Origin: Escherichia phage VEc25
DNA length: 64,000 bases
Sequence record: MW175414.1
Strand: one strand, 5' to 3'
The number at the start of each line of letters is the position of its first letter. Position 1 is the stretch's first letter. A program made the position numbers and the translations under genes. The notes beneath the pieces are model-generated. The model made no database searches and was not told where the DNA came from. It was given only the letters and a program-made list of their open reading frames with translations. Below, piece after piece: positions 3,735 to 44,041 of this stretch.

Positions 3735-4877
3735 ATGTCCATGACAGATGCTCAATTAACCCGTGAATATGACAGATGTCAGGCTAAAGCCTTTATGGGC
3801 AAAACTGCTGCATTCTTTGGTTCACTGTTATGTTCTCTGAAGTTCCGTTGGGTAAAAGATGGCTGTGATACAGCACAAACCGATGGTGAGCATCTCGAAT
3901 GGAATCCTGATTGGTTTGAAAGTCTATTACCTGAATCTCGTGTAACAGTACTTATGCATGAACTATGGCATGTCGGCTTACTGCATTCTGTTCGTATGGG
4001 TTCTCGTGACCCAGAAGTATGGAATTATGCCTGTGATATTTATATCAACAATCAGCTTATTCAGGATGGCTACAGCTTTATAGAAATCGAAAATTGCTGG
4101 AAAGACCTTAAGTATGCTGGTTGGGCTGAAGAACAAATCTATGATGACCTCATGAGCAAACAGATACGTCCTCCTAAAGCATCAGGTGCTTTTGGGACTG
4201 GCTCAGGTGGTGACATGAAACCTTCCACTTCGAAGGCTAGTCAGGTGAATATTGTCAATAATGTAGTAAGAGCCATGCACCAACAGAAACTATCTGGTGG
4301 CTCTTTGCCTGGGGTATTACCTGGAAAAATGGAAGAAGTTATTACTCAATTCCTGAAACCAGTAGTACCGTGGCAGGTTTTACTTGAACGCTTCTTCAAT
4401 GACCTGCAAGAAACTTACTACTCATGGCAACGGCCTAATCGTAGATACCCTGATATGTACCTACCATCTCCTATGGATGATGACGGTAAACTGGAACATC
4501 TGGCTTATTTCCTCGATACATCTGGCTCCATTAAACCTAAAGATGCTTTACGCTTTAGCTCTGAAGTGGCCTATGTAAAAGAGAAATATCAGCCTCAGAA
4601 GATGACTCTAGTTCAGTTCACTACAGAGATTGTAGACGAACAAGTCATTGAAGATGGTGATAAGTTTACTGATGTCACTATCAAAGGACGTGGTGGTACT
4701 AGTCTGGTTCCTGTACGTGAGTGGATTATTAAGCATAAGCCTACTGCTGCCATTATCTTTACTGACTTAGAAGTCAGACCGATGGAGCCATTGCCATTTG
4801 ACATTCCTGTCATATGGGTAGTTATTCGTAACCCTGGTGCACAAGTTCCATTTGGGAAAATTATTAACATTACATGA
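3735..4877 (+). CDS. HExxH metallopeptidase-like plus VWA (MIDAS) domain protein, MoxR partner
   Basis: HELWH zinc-binding-like motif near N-terminus; DTSGS MIDAS motif in C-terminal half; SD GAGGAAAA. Confidence 0.55.
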   Translation: MSMTDAQLTREYDRCQAKAFMGKTAAFFGSLLCSLKFRWVKDGCDTAQTDGEHLEWNPDWFESLLPESRVTVLMHELWHVGLLHSVRMGSRDPEVWNYACDIYINNQLIQDGYSFIEIENCWKDLKYAGWAEEQIYDDLMSKQIRPPKASGAFGTGSGGDMKPSTSKASQVNIVNNVVRAMHQQKLSGGSLPGVLPGKMEEVITQFLKPVVPWQVLLERFFNDLQETYYSWQRPNRRYPDMYLPSPMDDDGKLEHLAYFLDTSGSIKPKDALRFSSEVAYVKEKYQPQKMTLVQFTTEIVDEQVIEDGDKFTDVTIKGRGGTSLVPVREWIIKHKPTAAIIFTDLEVRPMEPLPFDIPVIWVVIRNPGAQVPFGKIINIT

Positions 4878-14856: not shown

Positions 14857-15384
14857 ATGCAACTGGGTGAAAAACAAATCCGTGAAATGACTAATAGTAG
14901 TGAACTGGTTCAGGAATTATTCTTAGCCGAGTTACGTCGGCTAGATAAAGTACTGGATAGTATTATTACACGTAATGGGGAAACATTCGCTGTATACAAC
15001 TCAACAGGGTTCCTGTATTTAGGGGAGTTCTATTCGAGTTCCCGTTCATCACAACAACCCCCTTCTGGTCATCGTCTGGCTCTAGCTAATCACCTACTGG
15101 ATGATATGCGGGAGTATCTGGAACAAGCAGGTAAACTTCTGCTAGAAGTCCATATGGTAAATCAGATGGTCTTTCGTCTGGTTCAGGGCTGTAAAACTTA
15201 TCAAGACGTTCGTGATGCATTGCCAGAATGCCTCATTGCTATGGATAAACAGGGTCATCTGAAATCCTTACAGAGAACCAGAAAGGCAGCATTTACTCTG
15301 GATAATGATGCTATGGCTCTCCGTCAGTATGAGAAAATCTTACCGATTATCGAATACTATGCGGGAACCCATCTTATCTTTTGA
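14857..15384 (+). CDS. Hypothetical protein (175 aa)
   Basis: ATG with AAGGAGAA SD. Confidence 0.45.
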   Translation: MQLGEKQIREMTNSSELVQELFLAELRRLDKVLDSIITRNGETFAVYNSTGFLYLGEFYSSSRSSQQPPSGHRLALANHLLDDMREYLEQAGKLLLEVHMVNQMVFRLVQGCKTYQDVRDALPECLIAMDKQGHLKSLQRTRKAAFTLDNDAMALRQYEKILPIIEYYAGTHLIF

Positions 15385-15391
15385 GGTCTGT

Positions 15392-17356
15392 ATGCGTCAC
15401 ATTACATTCAACAATGAGGGTATCTACCCTATTGCTATCCTTACTACAACGTTACGTAAGGATGATATTGTCAAAGCATACATGGAACCCTGGGATGTAG
15501 ATAAAGATTCAGTAATGATTCTTGAACTTCATACAGCCCCAGGGAAAAAGAAAACTCCTGCTAAAGAGATGCAGGAGTTTATTACCCAAGAATTAGTGCC
15601 AGCATTCGAAGCAGCACAAACTCAGTATATCATCTGTGGTGATTCTGAATATTACAAACAGCTAACCAAACAAGGTAAAGCTGATGCCAATATTGGCTAT
15701 GTAATGGATTGTGCTTATGGGAACCAGAAAGTTATTTACGTTCCCAATTACAGACAAATCTTTTATGACCCGGATAAGGTAAAGACTAAGATTGCTTTAT
15801 CTATGCAGGCTCTGATTGATTATGTCTCTGGTTCTTATGTTGAGCCAGGAACTAAGATTATCCACTATGCTGATTATCCATTAACTCCAGAAGCTATATC
15901 TAAGTGGTTAGATAAGTTACTGGAGATGAATGTTCCGTTAGCAGTGGATATAGAAACTTTCAGTCTGAAGCATTATGACTGTGGTATAGGCACTATTACA
16001 TTCTGCTGGAACAAGCATGAAGGGATTGCATTCCCTGTGGATTATGAACCAATTGAGGGGGCTACTGAAGCTCCTTATGGTAGACAAGTTCACAACATGC
16101 TTGTTCGTTCTATGCTCAGGGACTTTTTTATTAAGTATCTGAACAGGCAGATGTATCACAATATTGCCTTTGACGTATATGCACTCATTTACCAGTTATT
16201 TATGACAGACCTTCTGGATACGGAAGGGTTGTTGCATGGCATGAGTATCATGCTAAGAAACTGGGATTGCACTAAGTTAATTACCTATCTGGCCACTAAT
16301 TCTTGTGCTGGTAATAAGCTAAGTCTTAAAGACCAGGCTCAGGAATATGCTGGTAACTATGCTCAAGAAGAAATCAATGACATTACCAGAATCCCATTAG
16401 CAGAGTTGTTGGAATACAACTTAGTGGATGGATTATGTACCTGGTATGTCTATGAAAAGCATTGGGATACTCTGGTTAATGACCAACAGTTAGATGTTTA
16501 TACAAACATCTTTAAACCTGCATGTGAAGATATTATTCAAATGCAGTTAACTGGTATGCCTATCAATATGAAGACAGTATTGGAGGTAGAAGAGGCATTA
16601 ACCCAAGACTATAACAATGCGTTAAAAACAATTGCTGACAGTAAAGTAATCAAAGATTTTACCCGTCTTCTTAATGAAGAATGGGTAGAAAAACAGAACC
16701 AGATTCTGAAGAAGAAACGAGTGACTTTAGCTGATGCTAAAGAGCAGTTTAATCCAAACTCAGGTATTCAATTACAGAAGCTACTTTTTGAGTTTCTGGG
16801 GTTACCCGTACTGGGTCTGACTGCAAGTAAACTACCTGCTACTGGTAGTGGCATACTCAAGTCTTTGAAGAACCATACTCAAGATACCAGTATTCTGGAA
16901 ATTCTTGATGCTCTGATTGATTACAAAGCTGTAGATAAAATTCTGACAGCATTTATTCCAGCATTAAAAAATGCCAGACAAGGACCAGATGGTTGGCATT
17001 ATCTCTTTGGTAATCTGAACTTAGGTGGGACTGTATCAGGCCGTCTATCCAGTAGTGAACCAAACCTACAGAACCTACCTTCTGGTTCCAGATATGCCAA
17101 GATGATTAAAAAGTGTTTTGAGGCTCCCCCTGGGTGGATATTCTGTGGGCTAGACTTTGCTTCTCTCGAAGACCGTATATCTGCTTTAACAACCAAAGAC
17201 CCTAACAAGCTGAAGGTGTACATGGGTGTGACTGTTTATACAGTTACTATAGAAGGAGTTGACCATCATATCCGAGATGATGATACAATCGTTTATGATG
17301 GTAAAACTTATACCGGTGAGGAGTTCTATGACGCTTTTACCCGTGGCCTTCTATGA
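15392..17356 (+). CDS. Family-A DNA polymerase, N-terminal fragment (3'-5' exonuclease and motif A)
   Basis: ATG 15392 after GAGG; exo motif LAVDIETFS; motif A GLDFASLEDRI; the last ~40 codons do not look polymerase-like and stop at 17356. Confidence 0.7.
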   Translation: MRHITFNNEGIYPIAILTTTLRKDDIVKAYMEPWDVDKDSVMILELHTAPGKKKTPAKEMQEFITQELVPAFEAAQTQYIICGDSEYYKQLTKQGKADANIGYVMDCAYGNQKVIYVPNYRQIFYDPDKVKTKIALSMQALIDYVSGSYVEPGTKIIHYADYPLTPEAISKWLDKLLEMNVPLAVDIETFSLKHYDCGIGTITFCWNKHEGIAFPVDYEPIEGATEAPYGRQVHNMLVRSMLRDFFIKYLNRQMYHNIAFDVYALIYQLFMTDLLDTEGLLHGMSIMLRNWDCTKLITYLATNSCAGNKLSLKDQAQEYAGNYAQEEINDITRIPLAELLEYNLVDGLCTWYVYEKHWDTLVNDQQLDVYTNIFKPACEDIIQMQLTGMPINMKTVLEVEEALTQDYNNALKTIADSKVIKDFTRLLNEEWVEKQNQILKKKRVTLADAKEQFNPNSGIQLQKLLFEFLGLPVLGLTASKLPATGSGILKSLKNHTQDTSILEILDALIDYKAVDKILTAFIPALKNARQGPDGWHYLFGNLNLGGTVSGRLSSSEPNLQNLPSGSRYAKMIKKCFEAPPGWIFCGLDFASLEDRISALTTKDPNKLKVYMGVTVYTVTIEGVDHHIRDDDTIVYDGKTYTGEEFYDAFTRGLL

Positions 17357-17873
17357 ACAACGGTATAAGATTTCCGATGAAGGTTTCATCTTAAATCTTG
17401 CAAACAATCAACCCCTAAAACCGACTCTCAATCCTAACGGATACCTTAAGGTTGGGTTAGCTAATGGGGATGGTACACATCACCAAGAGCTACTTCATAT
17501 TCTGGTAGCTAAACACTTCATCCCTAATCCTTATGGCTATGAACAGGTGAACCATAAAGATGGTAATAAACTGCATTGTCATAAGGATAATCTGGAATGG
17601 TGCTCTGCTACTCAGAATGTTGAACATGCACTTAAAACAAGGCTACGTCCTGGTTACATGTCTGCTGACGATAAAGAAAAGTATCTCTTTGAGGTGCTGG
17701 CAGGTAAGCAAGTTAAAGACATTGCTTTTGAAATAGGTAGACGTCCTGAAACTTTGCATAAGATGCTCAGAACTACTGCTGACCGACTTGGTGTTCGAAA
17801 TGAGTGGGATGATGTTATGAGGAGAAATAGAAAAGATGTTGCTTTACGACAGCTTGCCAAAATCAACTCATGA
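17328..17873 (+). CDS. HNH homing endonuclease inserted within the DNA polymerase gene
   Basis: Track start 17259 is TTG; ATG 17328 with GAGGAG SD; NUMOD-like N-terminus (YKISDEGFILNL...NGYLKVGL) and HNH core HKDGNKLHCHKDNLEWCSATQNVEHAL; third frame relative to both polymerase fragments. Confidence 0.65.
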   Translation: MTLLPVAFYEQRYKISDEGFILNLANNQPLKPTLNPNGYLKVGLANGDGTHHQELLHILVAKHFIPNPYGYEQVNHKDGNKLHCHKDNLEWCSATQNVEHALKTRLRPGYMSADDKEKYLFEVLAGKQVKDIAFEIGRRPETLHKMLRTTADRLGVRNEWDDVMRRNRKDVALRQLAKINS

Positions 17874-38379: not shown

Positions 38380-40314
38380 TTAACGAGGAAATATATCAGG
38401 GATACCCAATCGACGTCCGGCATCTCTGCCTAAACTTCTCCGGTTTGCCTCGCTCTCTTCCTGTTTAATATTTTGTAGGCTCTTAATATCCAAATTCTGA
38501 GGGTCAGCAGCTACAGCATTACGAGCACCATCAAGAAGACGTTTAGCAGTGTTAACTCGCTCTTGATAGCGAGGTAGTACACTTCTAAGGTTTTCCTGAC
38601 CGGTCTGAATACGACGCTGTACTTCACGTAAATCAGCAAGTGCAGTATCTAACGTATTCTGTGCTGCATAGATGTTTGATTGAATTTGTGCAGTAAGCTG
38701 ATTACGAGCATTCTGTTCAATAGCAGTACCAGTAGTTGCAAGTTTTGCATTTGCTTCTACGGCTGCTTTATCCAGTTGGTAATCACCGCCCAAATCAATA
38801 ACATCAGTATCAAAGGCATTTCGAATACCACTAAACCATCCCTCTGGTTTACCAGTGATACTACGTTGAATGATTGCTCCTGCCATAGCGGGAGAAATAG
38901 CATTCTGTTTTGCTACCTCATTGATTTGTCGAACCAGTGCACCTTGGTTAATGCCTTTCAGTTCATTGCTATCAATAATACGTTTAGCCACCTGACCAGT
39001 CGTAGAAGGGTCAACAGTAGCAGCTTGGTATTCAGGCAGCAGAGTATTACCAATATTCTGCATATTACGAGTACCAACAGTATTACCAGCAACAGAAGTG
39101 AATGCTTGTTCTTGTAATGGATTAATAGAATTACCTGTTTCTGCTTGAGCAATGTAATCCTTCATTTCATCCCATGACAGGTTCTTATAAGCACCAGGAG
39201 TATCATCTGGTAAAGCAGCCCATGTACTCTTCAGATTGCCATTCTTACGGGCATTAAAAATAGCTTCACCCAGTTTGTCTTGGTTCTCCGGAGACATAGG
39301 AATGTTCTGCCAATCTTCACCAAATACCTTTGGAGCAAAGTCTTTAAGGGTATCTTGGTTAATCTGGTATGCACCAACAGGAGAAGCACCTAGTGTCTTC
39401 TTCATAGTGTCTTGATGCTGAACCACCTCACCTAAGTTCATCTGAGTAATAGGTACATCAGTTGGTGTGAACTTATAGGTAGTGTCATATGCAGAACCAT
39501 TCCGAGTACCCTGAGTACCAGGAGGAGATAGAGATGCAGAACCAGTTCCCGGGGTATATGCACCTGGATATGCTCTATCTAACTGAGATAGTGCACGACT
39601 TACTGCTCCTGGTGACATTTGGTCGAACGTACCCTCTGCAAGCATACGAGCATCGTCAGCACTGTATGCACCACGACGAATATTATTCAGTAACTGCATA
39701 GCAGCCTGAGTATCCGCATCGTTACGCATATCAACACCTAAGTCGAATAAGCTACGACGTTGACCAATACCAGCAGTACCCTGCCCTTGAAGGTTGTTCA
39801 TGTAGTCCATAACAACACCAGCAGGAAGGGTTTTTAATACATCCCCATACTGAGCCTGTGCTGCCTGAACCTTTCTTGGGTCACCAGATTGATAAGCCAG
39901 AGCCAATTCCTGCAATGCAGGAGCAGCAGCATCAGTAGCTGCATTTACCTTCATGATTCTGTCATTACTGTATCGAGTGAAATCCAGATTTTGTTGTTTA
40001 GATGCTTGGTCTAACAGATTGCCAGCACGATTATCTAAGTTCTCCATAGTACGAGAAGAAATTAGAGAAGGGTCATAGCCAGCAAATAATGCTCCAGAAG
40101 CTAAGGCATTACGATACTCATTAGGGTCTTGGTAACGCATGGCTTCAGCCATAATTGCATCACCAGCTTGCTGTCTTGCAGAGTTTCGAAAATCACCTAA
40201 TGCATTACTCAATCCGGCAGTGGCATTACCCAGCATATTGGAGAAAGTACGAATACTATCCCCAACACCAGAGAAAGAAGGAGCATCAACATTACGCCAG
40301 GTTATCTGACTCAT
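38380..40314 (-). CDS. Virion structural protein (644 aa)
   Basis: ATG at 40314 (MSQITWRN) with GGAGG SD preferred over the track ATG at 40329; ATGA overlap with upstream gene. Confidence 0.45.
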   Translation of the reverse strand: MSQITWRNVDAPSFSGVGDSIRTFSNMLGNATAGLSNALGDFRNSARQQAGDAIMAEAMRYQDPNEYRNALASGALFAGYDPSLISSRTMENLDNRAGNLLDQASKQQNLDFTRYSNDRIMKVNAATDAAAPALQELALAYQSGDPRKVQAAQAQYGDVLKTLPAGVVMDYMNNLQGQGTAGIGQRRSLFDLGVDMRNDADTQAAMQLLNNIRRGAYSADDARMLAEGTFDQMSPGAVSRALSQLDRAYPGAYTPGTGSASLSPPGTQGTRNGSAYDTTYKFTPTDVPITQMNLGEVVQHQDTMKKTLGASPVGAYQINQDTLKDFAPKVFGEDWQNIPMSPENQDKLGEAIFNARKNGNLKSTWAALPDDTPGAYKNLSWDEMKDYIAQAETGNSINPLQEQAFTSVAGNTVGTRNMQNIGNTLLPEYQAATVDPSTTGQVAKRIIDSNELKGINQGALVRQINEVAKQNAISPAMAGAIIQRSITGKPEGWFSGIRNAFDTDVIDLGGDYQLDKAAVEANAKLATTGTAIEQNARNQLTAQIQSNIYAAQNTLDTALADLREVQRRIQTGQENLRSVLPRYQERVNTAKRLLDGARNAVAADPQNLDIKSLQNIKQEESEANRRSLGRDAGRRLGIPDIFPR

Positions 40315-40847
40315 ACGTATAGCCTCCATCCACGGTGAGATTCACAAGTACCATCTCGCAAACGGTACATTTGCTTACGACTTAACCCGTGCTCACGGCA
40401 GAATTTGTTTAAATTAATAATTTCCACAACATCACCATTGGGGTTTATGTACCAATGAGACTTACTATTAGCCTTAGCTACGTTGTCAGACACTGGGATT
40501 AGTTTACAAACTTTTGGACTATACTCAGGGGCAAGTCCATTATCTTTATCCAACTGGTAGTTATTGTTTTCTGGGTCAATGCCTAAAAGGGAGCAAGTAT
40601 CATAGTACCACTGAGCGAAGTCTTGGTAGTTACCCCATTCTTTACTAACAACAACCCCTTTCGCACCGTATTGGGAATACCCAGGATTAGCCGGATTGTA
40701 GCACCGCATAAACATCCCCCACCATCTTATGTATGCAGAGCATGTTTTACTGCCATCTTTTGTTTTAGTAGAAAACTTACAACCAGAGTTAACCATATGA
40801 GCAGGTTTCCACTGAACGTTAATATTTGAGTTTGGGTATTGTTTCAT
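40311..40847 (-). CDS. Degenerate HNH-like homing-endonuclease-like protein inside the structural module
   Basis: Track start 40874 is GTG; ATG 40847 with AGGAGA SD; motif YIRWWGMFMRCYNPANPGYSQYGAKGVVVSKEW...YQLDKDNG...YSPKVCKL resembles a phage family built as W..M..RC.NP...Y..YGGRGI.V...W...DRIDNNG.Y.P.NCRW (recalled, not searched). Confidence 0.3.
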   Translation of the reverse strand: MKQYPNSNINVQWKPAHMVNSGCKFSTKTKDGSKTCSAYIRWWGMFMRCYNPANPGYSQYGAKGVVVSKEWGNYQDFAQWYYDTCSLLGIDPENNNYQLDKDNGLAPEYSPKVCKLIPVSDNVAKANSKSHWYINPNGDVVEIINLNKFCREHGLSRKQMYRLRDGTCESHRGWRLYV

Positions 40848-40917
40848 AGTTGTTCTCCTAATATTGGCACACACTAACTAAACAATACCCAAATCTCAAT
40901 GAGCCATGTGATACCTC

Positions 40918-41370
40918 TTAACGAGTTAAGCGATTAGCTGCAATGTAAGCATCAGCCGTAGATTGGTCACGATTTTCTGCAACAGCACGACTACGAGCAC
41001 GGTCTTCCAGAGCAGTGTTATAGGACTTAATCTGGTTATTCAGATTAGTGTTAGTAACATCTTTAGCAAAAGAGAACTGATTCTTAGCTAACTTGTTAGC
41101 CTGTAATGCACCATAGATATTACCCAGTGCATTAAGACCACCTAACCCCAACTGGAAGGTAGGAATGTTCAGACCCAGTTGGTCAGTAAGCCCTTGAGTC
41201 TGTCCACCGGTATTCCCTGTAGCACCACCAGTAATGTTCTGAAGCCAGTCATTACTAAGGATGCCGGATTGCATAGGGTTATAGTTCATGGTTGGGGTAT
41301 TAAAGGAACCATATCCATAGCCAAAATTGCTTTGTGCAGATGGGGTTCCAAAAAGGAAATTAGTATCCAT
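40918..41370 (-). CDS. Gly-rich hypothetical virion protein (150 aa)
   Basis: ATG with AGGAGA SD; GGATGNTGGQTQG low-complexity segment. Confidence 0.45.
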   Translation of the reverse strand: MDTNFLFGTPSAQSNFGYGYGSFNTPTMNYNPMQSGILSNDWLQNITGGATGNTGGQTQGLTDQLGLNIPTFQLGLGGLNALGNIYGALQANKLAKNQFSFAKDVTNTNLNNQIKSYNTALEDRARSRAVAENRDQSTADAYIAANRLTR

Positions 41371-41383
41371 AAGGATTCTCCTG

Positions 41384-44041
41384 TTACGTATCTAAATCAA
41401 GCTGCAACGTTATATCTGCAAAGTTGGTAATCATGTTGTTAGACATATCAGCTATATCATGACCAGTCATAAGAGTACGGCTAAGGAATGAATCCAGTGG
41501 TTCAAATTGTTGGCCTACATTAGTTAGGTTCATTGGGTCAATGTAACCCATGCCCTCAGTGCCAAACATTTCCTTGTACTTTTCCTGAATGGTTTTCATC
41601 TGGTCACGGTACTCTGCCATAAGTTTCTCTGTCTTTTTGACAGTTTCCATAGCAGAAGCATTAATGTAATCACTTATGCCATTTCCTACAGATGAAGTGA
41701 GTTTAATGATGTTGTCTGCTTTCATCATTTCACCCAGCATCGTAGACATGGATGAACCAGTGGATAAAGCTGTGCCGACATTCATGGCTACCATAGAGGC
41801 AATAGTAGCAACAATGATTCCAATTTTATCCCCAAGCAGACTAACAGAGACTGTTTGAATAATGGACATCAGAATCATAGCTGCAATGGCATTAGCCACA
41901 GCCCCAACGATAATAGCAGCTAACCCTGCAAAACCTAATGCAGCACCAATAGAAGCAGCAGTACCCATTACCCCAGCACCAGCAGCAGGGGTAAAGAACA
42001 CAGACACCACTACTGCAACAACAACCACTACTACTTTAAAGATGCCAGACTGATACCATTTCTTCTTAACTTTCTTATATGAGTTAAGAACCAGATAACA
42101 ACATGCAGTAGATAACTGAGTACCATTTACCAAAGACATACTACGATAAATGTTGTTATGAAGCGGGATGATAAATCCGGACTCTTCATCATCATTTAGT
42201 GCATCTACACCAGAAATGCTTACAGACTTATTCTTGTAAACATTATTGTTATGGTTCAGGCCATAGACAGAAATCTTCCTCCATGAATTATCCCCATCCT
42301 GCCAATACATTGTTATCTTATCTAGCCTGTAGATAGTAAACCCAACTTTGTCATTACCCTTTTCAGAGTACATAACGGCTTTCTGCATAAGGACTACAGT
42401 ACCTTCATAAGCAAACTTGAGCTGCCCTTTCTTGGCTCCAGAGAATGCTTTACCTGAACCAACTGATTCTTCAATGAAGTTCCAACTAATAGTCATGTTG
42501 TAACGGTATCCACCGTTAGAACGAATATTAATGGATTTAGAAGGTATTGTTGGATATACGGGTCTTTTAGGAGGCTTCCCTATGGGAATATCCCTATTAC
42601 CACTGCGAGATTCCCACCATTCCTGATAAGCATCAAAGTCCCTGTTAGCCTGAGCAAAGCCTTCTACCAAAGCATCCATAGTTGGGTAGTTTGGGTCAGC
42701 AGGCATTGATTGATTCACTAACTGGAAGAATCTGTATATGTACTCTTTAGCTGTATTTTCAGGACTATTAAGAGAACAACCAAATACAGCATAGATATAC
42801 TGAATATCACCAATATCTTTGTTCTTCTTCAGGTCATCCATAATGTCAGAAATCTTACCCCCTGTAGCCTTCTTAAAGGCTTTCTTACAAAGAGTATATG
42901 TAGAGCCAGAAATCCAGTTCTTATCACTACGGATAGGGATGAATGAATAGAATCTGTTATTGGTCGTCTTATTAATAAACAGAGCATCAAGGATGGCATT
43001 ACCACTGTTCTGTTTATAAATAAACAATTGAGGCATACCACCAGCAGACATAGTAGTAACTACATCTGTATTCTGATAAGACCATGTATAACCTAAAGTA
43101 TCTGTAGTTACTGTAGTAGTTCTGGTTTCAGTAACCCCACCACCTAAATCAATAACTTCAGTGTTTGTAGTGGAACCAGTAGATACAGTGCCAGTCTGTA
43201 CCTGGGTCATTGTAGTCTTACGAATAATGATTAAGCCTACTTCACTTGGTTCACGAAATTCTTTCTCGTAAACATCTGAGAAGTTAGTCCAACTAACCTG
43301 TTCTTCTTCAGTATTGGTACTTTCCTCATCAGGTCTGCCATCAGAGAATACACTCTTAATATGAGTAACTGTCTTCAGGGTAGCTGACTTAGGAGTATGG
43401 TTCTGAGATACCTGAGTCCATTCAGAAGTAGAAGGTAAGTCATCAGCAGATGATACAGGTACAACAGGGTGAACCACTGGGTCTGCAACACTAGTAGGCT
43501 GTATGTAGTAATAGTTCACATACAGATACATTGCATCCTGACTGAAATTCTCTGGGTAAAAGGATAACTCACTACCATCAGTAGCAGTGAGTACAATCCT
43601 GTCATCATCCATGATATCTATTTCAAACTCTTCAGTAATACGGTCTGGATAATTCTCATAGAGGAATTTATCAGCCCATTCCTCAAAATCACCAAATCCA
43701 ATCCTACTGCTCTGAACCTGTACCTCATAACCTGCTTTTTGAGGAACTTGCCATTTAACTACTTCAGGGTCTATCTGAGACAGTATTGACAAGTTCCCGT
43801 AAGCAATACCAATTGAAGGGTCATAGTTAGTTGCAGCCCAACCAGGGAATCTACGTAAACGAATACCAGGTCCATTTAAATAAGAGTCAGTGATGGTATC
43901 ACCCATACTAAAGTCAGATTTACTGACGATGTTACCAATCACCGTAGTCTTTAAATAATTTGGACGTTTATGTATATCCCCTGCCAAATTGTAGACAGAG
44001 GATGCTACGTAGATTTTAGTCTTACTGCTAAACAGTCCCAT
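41384..44041 (-). CDS. Large internal virion protein with C-terminal multi-transmembrane region (candidate ejection protein)
   Basis: 885 aa; C-terminal ~220 aa hold several hydrophobic helices (VVVVVVAVVVSVFF..., AAIIVGAVANAIAAMILM...). Confidence 0.45.
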   Translation of the reverse strand: MGLFSSKTKIYVASSVYNLAGDIHKRPNYLKTTVIGNIVSKSDFSMGDTITDSYLNGPGIRLRRFPGWAATNYDPSIGIAYGNLSILSQIDPEVVKWQVPQKAGYEVQVQSSRIGFGDFEEWADKFLYENYPDRITEEFEIDIMDDDRIVLTATDGSELSFYPENFSQDAMYLYVNYYYIQPTSVADPVVHPVVPVSSADDLPSTSEWTQVSQNHTPKSATLKTVTHIKSVFSDGRPDEESTNTEEEQVSWTNFSDVYEKEFREPSEVGLIIIRKTTMTQVQTGTVSTGSTTNTEVIDLGGGVTETRTTTVTTDTLGYTWSYQNTDVVTTMSAGGMPQLFIYKQNSGNAILDALFINKTTNNRFYSFIPIRSDKNWISGSTYTLCKKAFKKATGGKISDIMDDLKKNKDIGDIQYIYAVFGCSLNSPENTAKEYIYRFFQLVNQSMPADPNYPTMDALVEGFAQANRDFDAYQEWWESRSGNRDIPIGKPPKRPVYPTIPSKSINIRSNGGYRYNMTISWNFIEESVGSGKAFSGAKKGQLKFAYEGTVVLMQKAVMYSEKGNDKVGFTIYRLDKITMYWQDGDNSWRKISVYGLNHNNNVYKNKSVSISGVDALNDDEESGFIIPLHNNIYRSMSLVNGTQLSTACCYLVLNSYKKVKKKWYQSGIFKVVVVVVAVVVSVFFTPAAGAGVMGTAASIGAALGFAGLAAIIVGAVANAIAAMILMSIIQTVSVSLLGDKIGIIVATIASMVAMNVGTALSTGSSMSTMLGEMMKADNIIKLTSSVGNGISDYINASAMETVKKTEKLMAEYRDQMKTIQEKYKEMFGTEGMGYIDPMNLTNVGQQFEPLDSFLSRTLMTGHDIADMSNNMITNFADITLQLDLDT

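Follow-up and report, generated by a model that had tools for sequence, protein, structure and literature searches.

In T4-like phages, the free-standing homing endonuclease genes of the Seg and Mob type lie between conserved genes or at their ends, are distributed sporadically among relatives, and spread by cutting the cassette-free allele in mixed infections; several of them lie under hairpins that hide the ribosome-binding site. Among the His-Me finger nucleases, the group 20 enzyme PacI (PDB 3m7k/3ldy) lacks the histidine, uses a tyrosine in the loop, and holds its metal through one aspartate and one asparagine (PMC5714182, PMC4081073); it requires zinc and has Cys4 motifs (PMC4081073). 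Herein we analysed a 64,000-nucleotide stretch of Escherichia phage VEc25 (MW175414.1), referred to as the window, in which an open reading frame (ORF) of 178 codons (40311–40847, minus strand) lies between homologs of two virion protein genes of phage N4. We consider it likely that this ORF belongs to a free-standing homing-endonuclease cassette that invaded the gp52/gp51 junction of an N4-type (Enquatrovirus) phage from a relative of the Gamaleyavirus group. The element itself is known, being already annotated in the Gamaleyavirus PGN829.1, and what is new is its occurrence in an N4-type genome.

A sporadic insertion in the virion gene block

Megablast and whole-genome comparison identified the window as Enquatrovirus DNA, colinear with N4 at ~98% identity across 64 kb. 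When compared with the whole of N4 by BLAST, the window has two insertions only, at 17221–17922 and at 40310–40899, and the second of these, 590 bp not covered by N4, contains the ORF. The ORF runs on the minus strand from an ATG at 40847 to a TGA at 40311–40313 and encodes 178 amino acids (MKQYPNS...GWRLYV*). A reading made from the sequence alone, hereafter the sequence-only reading, had placed it between two virion protein genes, and this was borne out. Upstream on the same strand is the homolog of gp52, a 16.5-kDa virion protein (40918–41370, minus strand; 99.3% amino acid identity to N4 gp52), and downstream is the gene that is interrupted and retargeted, the homolog of gp51, a 66-kDa virion protein (38380–40314, minus strand; 98.6% amino acid identity to N4 gp51), past which the gene order continues with gp50, the virion RNA polymerase (vRNAP) gene of 3,500 codons. 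The motifs that had been quoted from the ORF, YIRWWGMFMRCYNPANPGYSQYGAKGVVVSKEW, YQLDKDNG and YSPKVCKL, are all found in it, and the reported ATGA overlap with the downstream gene is real at 40311–40314, given that the gp51 start was placed by homology at the ATG at 40314 (MSQITWRN in the window versus MAQITWRN in N4).

The ORF is absent from N4, PMBT57 and 13 other close relatives, which together make up 15 Enquatrovirus records of the phage collection. In all 15 both flanks are 98–99% identical to those of the window and the interval is 593 bp shorter, with a spacer of 10 nucleotides (nt) between the gp52 stop and the gp51 start in N4 and the cassette-free close relatives. The same position between gp52 and gp51 is occupied in the Gamaleyavirus PGN829.1 (94% amino acid identity to the ORF) and in phage ST4 (67%), and metagenomic N4-like contigs carry homologs that are 59–99% identical between the same two genes, five of these contigs at exactly this site. 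The set of occupied sites comprised PGN829.1, ST4 and contigs L007–L014 and L029–L032, among which the pair L013/L014 reproduces the N4-type configuration of the window almost exactly. Several Gamaleyaviruses, including pSb-1 and ECBP1, are cassette-free. Presence/absence polymorphism at one precise site among close relatives is a criterion of free-standing homing endonuclease genes, and it is seen here. These comparisons support the proposal of the sequence-only reading that the ORF was inserted into the structural block adjoining the vRNAP gene, as it is missing from 15 relatives and found at the same site in another genus; synteny with the N4-like relatives shows that the ORF is not conserved at its position, and so is an insertion rather than a conserved structural gene.

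A second characteristic of homing endonuclease genes is that the element is closer across lineages than the genes that flank it. Compared with PGN829.1, the ORF of the window has an identity of 94% in amino acids and 90% in nucleotides, and the corresponding values are 70% and 70% for gp52, 48% and 58% for gp51, and 55% and 60% for gp53. As the ORF is far closer than its flanks between the two genera, the element is younger than those flanks. At the cassette edges, the identity of the window to N4 returns to 98–100%. Judged from these identities, an element younger than its flanks is explained by lateral transfer into a homologous site, and cannot be explained by shared ancestry followed by loss. 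The empty-site 26-mer ATGGCTCAAATTACATGGCGTAATGTTGATGC was found in six IMG/VR contigs and the occupied-type junction 26-mer matched nothing in IMG/VR, so occupancy is rare.

The cassette replaces the start of gp51

Alignment of the window with N4, PMBT57, PGN829.1 and ST4 places the borders of the inserted cassette at 40300–40899 (minus strand), a length of 600 bp that replaces the 7 bp AATTACA, from gp51 codons 3–5, of the N4-type empty site. Its content is a single ORF with its own ribosome-binding site, the Shine-Dalgarno sequence AGGAGA at 40854–40859 (minus strand), 6 nt upstream of the ORF ATG. At the upstream border, most of the junctions that we tabulated retain a remnant of the old gp51 start, which in the window is ATGGCTCATTGA (40896–40907, minus strand) and encodes the stub MAH*. 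The original ribosome-binding site, GAGG at 40914–40917, still precedes this stub, and the MAH* remnant is present in eight of the ten occupied loci examined. At the downstream border, the cassette carries a recoded gp51 start, ATGAGTCAGATAACC (MSQIT; 40300–40314, minus strand), in the place of the ATGGCTCAAATTACA (MAQIT) of empty sites, such that 5 of the 15 nt differ from the original. Both the stub and the recoded start in PGN829.1 match those of the window.

Within the last codons of the ORF (G173-W174-R175) there is a GGAGG at 40323–40327 (minus strand), 8 nt upstream of the gp51 ATG. From its sequence and position, this is likely the Shine-Dalgarno sequence of gp51, and a GGAG(G/A) lies 4–20 nt upstream of the gp51 ATG in every occupied locus of the junction table. 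Because the cassette brings its own gp51 start and GGAGG, gp51 stays intact and the original target sequence is gone from the occupied allele. In the empty sites of N4 (Enquatrovirus) and of pSb-1 and ECBP1 (Gamaleyavirus), that sequence has the form TAA-RBS-ATGGCTCAAATTACATGGCGTAATGTTGATGC, where RBS is the ribosome-binding site. Around the gp51 start, N4 and the empty sites of pSb-1 and ECBP1 share an identical stretch of 33 nt; the whole gp51 DNA is ~58% identical between the genera. The occupied allele splits this 33-nt block as well as recoding 5 of 15 nt, and in this respect too the locus resembles those of homing endonuclease genes, a third criterion of which is that a conserved host target is altered in the occupied allele; the block would here be the recognition site. 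We also looked for an anomaly of composition and found none, the GC content of 40310–40899 being 40.3% and that of the window 41.6%.

Two other N4-like phages carry variants of this junction. Escherichia phage vB_EcoP_PW8 (L017; PQ362703.1, ~1485–1511) is a Gamaleyavirus without the cassette in which gp51 begins ATGAGTCAGATAACATGG, so that a recoded start of the cassette type is fused directly to an upstream region of the empty-site type. This allele could be the footprint of a precise loss, in which case it would be cleavage-resistant, or it could be the ancestral allele in which the cassette arose. In ST4 (L003; OM982646.1), the homologous ORF at 4001–4528 is unannotated and the annotated gp51 start (4494) falls within it. 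In both ST4 and contig L009, the 3′ end of the ORF overlaps the gp51 start out of frame by ~26 nt, rather than by an ATGA.

The ORF is a conserved gene with a leader hairpin

The ORF is a genuine gene and a chance ORF is ruled out, because it has eight close and thousands of distant homologs and its ratio of nonsynonymous to synonymous substitution rates (dN/dS) is 0.04 when compared with the PGN829.1 copy (dS 0.60). The ratio is 0.05–0.07 in comparison with a copy that is 78% identical. Substitution ratios of this order point to strong purifying selection on the ORF, with no decay.

Neither a sigma-70-like promoter nor an intrinsic terminator was found in 40100–41500, which argues that the ORF is transcribed with the late virion genes. 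The leader that follows the MAH* stub pairs with codons 2–8 of the ORF, forming an RNA hairpin at 40826–40899 (minus strand; inverted repeat 40831–40844 / 40880–40893) with a 19-bp stem, 14 bp of which is perfect, that encloses both the Shine-Dalgarno sequence and the ATG of the ORF. Its minimum free energy is −29.1 kcal/mol (z −5.03), and none of 200 dinucleotide shuffles was equally stable. Hairpins that hide the ribosome-binding site are a recurrent limit on the expression of T4-type homing endonucleases.

A homing-endonuclease-type DNA-binding module follows a putative nuclease core

To examine the protein, we used a family profile of 98 homologs with identities down to 28%. Residues 130–178 (40314–40460, minus strand) form a C-terminal DNA-binding module of two strands and a helix-turn-helix that resembles the NUMOD-like domain of I-HmuI. 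The profile aligns to I-HmuI residues 109–169 with an E-value of 5e-4, and has a weaker alignment to AcrVA3. The Pfam model of the I-HmuI NUMOD-like domain, PF22083, matches 24 of the 98 homologs, with a best E-value of 3.8e-6 that is just under the gathering score, and has no match at E<=10 in the window protein alone. The same module is found at the end of many GIY-YIG 'group I intron endonucleases', often in tandem. By these alignments, the C-terminal third of the protein is predicted to be a standard homing-endonuclease DNA-binding module. The ~45-residue NUMOD-like module occurs in three to six tandem copies at the C-termini of GIY-YIG proteins (P0066, P0103 and many others), and on sequence grounds homing-endonuclease classes have clearly exchanged this module.

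The remainder of the protein, residues 1–131 (40455–40847, minus strand), is modelled as a core domain and is a putative nuclease. By tblastn, the core, taken here as residues ~30–128, was found in 1,092 phage records, and a phmmer search with the whole 178-residue protein returned 10,973 cluster representatives at E<=1e-3, of which many matched in the C-terminal module only. An AP2 domain is joined to the core in Bacillus phage BC01, an N-terminal cysteine-rich segment accompanies it in Staphylococcus phages Sb-1 and ROSA, and two DNA polymerase fragments enclose it in Lactobacillus phage Semele. That the core stays constant while its DNA-binding modules are exchanged suggests that catalysis resides in it. 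Members of the family, among them P0016 of Vibrio phage 489E54-1 and those in several Vibrio phage records, are labelled inconsistently, as 'putative portal protein', 'AP2 domain protein', 'restriction endonuclease' (PHROG 8790), 'HTH endonuclease' or 'winged helix-turn-helix DNA-binding domain protein', a mixture that shows the lack of a curated family definition.

In the AlphaFold model, which has a mean confidence (pLDDT) of 90.5 for the whole protein and 88.9 for residues 1–131, the core consists of helices 37–50 and 74–88, a strand at 97–100, a long loop, a second strand at 115–118 and a helix at 119–127. The strand-loop-strand-helix unit is a weak, fold-level pointer to the beta-beta-alpha-metal nucleases, one for which Foldseek returned no match. 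At the end of the first strand lies D100-K101-D102 (40542–40550, minus strand), in which K101 is invariant and D100 and D102 are 99% conserved among the 98 homologs. K101 sits where HNH nucleases have their general-base histidine; the catalytic histidine that is almost invariant at the C-terminal end of the first beta-strand is absent, with K101 in all 98 homologs and arginine in distant relatives (D-R in Staphylococcus phage Sb-1 orf050). Y109 (40521–40523, minus strand), an invariant tyrosine in the inter-strand loop, is a candidate for a general base or nucleophile of the PacI type, and by its place in that loop may correspond to the tyrosine of PacI. N122 (40482–40484, minus strand), an asparagine that is 98% conserved, is a candidate metal ligand. 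The spacing of K101 and N122 is 21 residues, as is that of H75 and N96 in I-HmuI, and by sequence and model position both candidate metal ligands stand where they are expected, with N122 in the first turn of the helix that follows the hairpin (119–127) and D100 immediately before position 101. Other residues invariant in the 98 homologs are R48, Y50, Y60, W71 and C114.

Profile searches gave no match to a structural protein, and instead led to PHROG families labelled 'HNH endonuclease' and to the C-terminal I-HmuI-type module. The protein matches one such family, PHROG 2081, with an E-value of 2.4e-39. The HNH label derives from the PHROG and GenBank annotations and is unproven, as it is not substantiated at the level of sequence; it may have been passed on solely by way of the shared C-terminal module of the I-HmuI type. 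The Pfam HNH models do not match the ORF at E<=10, the N-terminal NUMOD4 and the HNH_3 catalytic domain of the I-HmuI type were not found in the ORF or in its family, phmmer of the ORF against PDB sequences gave no match, and scans of the ORF with Pfam, NCBIfam and PADLOC yielded nothing useful. Demonstrable homology to HNH nucleases was considered and dropped, since hhalign gave a null result both as a single sequence and as a profile. Two other catalytic assignments were likewise rejected: a GIY-YIG reading of 'RCY-x9-YG', because RCY closes a helix in the model and is not part of a strand, and a PD-(D/E)xK reading of 'PE...DKD', because the (D/E)xK spacing is absent.

We read the core as a probable descendant of the beta-beta-alpha-metal (His-Me) nucleases that has no catalytic histidine, and we designate it as a putative nuclease. 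We raise only tentatively the idea that its conserved pattern, W..M..RCY ... Y.G..V...W ... D-K/R-D ... Y.P..C ... N, present in more than 1,000 sequenced phage genomes and habitually annotated 'HNH' or 'AP2', defines an uncharacterised, histidine-less catalytic class of homing endonucleases. Such a class could be a PacI-like beta-beta-alpha-metal nuclease that depends on tyrosine and lysine, or it could represent a new nuclease fold.

Proposed mode of invasion and alternative explanations

We propose that the protein, through its NUMOD-like helix-turn-helix, would bind the conserved block of 33 nt that surrounds the gp51 start in phages without the cassette. In a mixed infection the core domain would nick or cut that empty-site DNA, and recombinational repair from the occupied genome would then copy the cassette in. 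In the putative active site, D100 and N122 would hold the metal, and the invariant Y109, possibly with K101, would stand in for the histidine as the tyrosine does in PacI. The cassette would be transcribed together with the late virion genes, and its translation is probably held down by the leader hairpin, in which its ribosome-binding site is hidden; this hairpin may be opened by ribosomes that terminate on the MAH* stub, the UGA of which falls inside the stem base.

Several results weigh against this proposal. The Pfam HNH models match none of the 98 family members at E<=0.01, and hhalign against the canonical HNH_3 family was null (probability 0.3%, E 0.2), the comparison family having been built from the polymerase-inserted gene of the window described below and run as a single sequence and as a 36-sequence profile. 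A Foldseek search of the core domain against the PDB returned nothing significant (best E 2.3), and neither the ORF protein nor, to our knowledge, any member of its family is a known nuclease. The clade of the window lacks ~45 N-terminal residues that are typical of most relatives, which are ~220 residues long. With a dS of 0.6 to the nearest known copy, the transfer was not very recent. The leader-coding pairing is significant in only five of ten loci (the window, PGN829.1, ST4, L008 and L009) and is not significant in the five more divergent loci, and RNAalifold on the ten leader regions found no consensus structure. In the window the hairpin is real, yet the register in which its 5′ arm pairs changes from locus to locus, and we regard it as lineage-specific rather than conserved. 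The description of the gene as 'degenerate HNH-derived' in the sequence-only reading needs to be amended. Derivation from HNH is not demonstrated, there being no Pfam match, an hhalign probability of 0.3% and a lysine at the position of the histidine, and 'degenerate' is misleading for a gene that is well conserved (dN/dS 0.04) and whose histidine is missing family-wide.

Among the alternatives, the one that survives best, and that we nonetheless regard as unlikely, is that the protein is a catalytically dead relic of a homing endonuclease that binds DNA without cutting it and persists since gp51 needs its start codon and ribosome-binding site, in which case only a precise deletion of the cassette would be tolerated. 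The absence of the canonical HNH histidine and of any HNH profile match, the N-terminus shortened relative to the ~220-residue relatives, and the fact that the gp51 start and GGAGG come from the cassette would all fit such a relic. A dead enzyme is, however, hard to reconcile with a dN/dS of 0.04 over the whole ORF or with putative active-site residues that are invariant across 98 homologs. Moreover, the change from histidine to lysine or arginine extends across the family, as the D-R of Staphylococcus phage Sb-1 shows, and is no lesion of recent date, and an ORF that is much closer than its flanks between genera indicates that the element moved in this form.

We give little credence to a domesticated role, in which the ORF, instead of a mobile nuclease, would encode a DNA-binding accessory protein, e.g. 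an anti-defence factor or one that regulates the late virion genes. Both N4 and a further 14 close relatives manage without the ORF, it occurs sporadically and at a single site across genera, PADLOC gave no match, and DNA polymerase genes, which classic homing endonucleases interrupt, are interrupted by members of this family too. Lastly, it is highly improbable that the ORF is ancestral to the Enquatrovirinae and was lost in the N4 lineage rather than inserted, for although diverse N4-like contigs carry homologs with identities down to 59% at the same site, the ORF keeps 94% identity across two genera that are only 48–70% identical in the genes on either side of it, the uninterrupted sequence is the same in the empty sites of both genera, and the flanks switch to 98–100% N4 identity at the cassette boundaries.

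Other loci in the window

The other insertion relative to N4, at 17221–17922 (plus strand), carries an HNH_3, I-HmuI-like endonuclease gene (ORF ~17259–17873) within the DNA polymerase gene. Its product matches PF13392 and I-HmuI residues 17–102 (E 9e-7). The polymerase gene is split into 15305–17356 and 17836–18666, at ...KLKVY | GYDGHS..., and Rfam detected no group I intron at this insertion even at E<=1. The polymerase may be a 'gene in pieces', or the insertion may include an unrecognised intron.

The sequence-only reading had counted the ORF at the gp52/gp51 junction as the third such gene in the window, of which we could verify only two, this ORF and the HNH_3 gene in the DNA polymerase gene. 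The homolog of N4 gp25 (3735–4877, plus strand) is named 'HNH endonuclease' in RefSeq and matches in Pfam the DUF2201_N putative metallopeptidase (E 1e-85) and the VWA-like DUF2201. Pfam finds no HNH match in it, and on its domain content the label is probably a misannotation; it may be what was counted earlier as another endonuclease. Rfam also identified four tRNA genes at 25706–26381 (plus strand), a region that corresponds to an unannotated interval of N4 between gp47 and gp48.

Significance and comparison with known systems

The cassette is otherwise a routine mobile element, an ordinary kind of phage parasite. It does provide a near-isogenic natural pair, with and without the cassette, along with a precise junction, and hence a system for the study of homing and marker exclusion in the Schitoviridae. 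The cassette further illustrates a way for a selfish gene to invade the opening codons of an essential virion gene harmlessly, namely by carrying a recoded start and placing a ribosome-binding site inside its own coding sequence. Finally, a very large phage family is called 'HNH endonuclease' although the HNH signature is undetectable and the catalytic histidine is absent, and an 'HNH' family with neither the signature nor the histidine has a chemistry that deserves a direct test.

With respect to the described systems, the nearest is gp63 of PGN829.1 (YP_010659736.1; 'HNH endonuclease / HNH homing endonuclease protein'), which shares with the window the length of 178 amino acids, the ATGA overlap, the MAH* stub and the recoded gp51 start. 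It differs in its background, which is that of a Gamaleyavirus, whereas the cassette in the window lies in an Enquatrovirus and is absent from 15 other Enquatrovirus records. I-HmuI (PDB 1u3e), the HNH homing endonuclease of Bacillus phage SPO1, has D74-H75 where the window protein has D100-K101; it is intron-encoded and the gene in the window is free-standing, and its HNH_3 and NUMOD4 domains are unmatched here. The GIY-YIG 'group I intron endonucleases' (e.g. P0066) share with the window protein a ~45-residue NUMOD-like module that is 45–55% identical, and differ from it in having an unrelated catalytic domain (PF01541).

The relationship of PacI to the window protein is undetectable in sequence, and in structure the two match weakly. 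PacI, a dimeric restriction enzyme, is not the protein of a mobile element, and its Cys4 zinc motifs have no counterpart in the window protein, which has seven cysteines and no CxxC pair; only C49, C114 and C150 are conserved family-wide. The Seg and Mob endonucleases belong to catalytic families, GIY-YIG or canonical HNH, that differ from the window protein, and their genes sit cleanly in the intergenic spacer, whereas the cassette described here rebuilds the 5′ end of the gene downstream of it.

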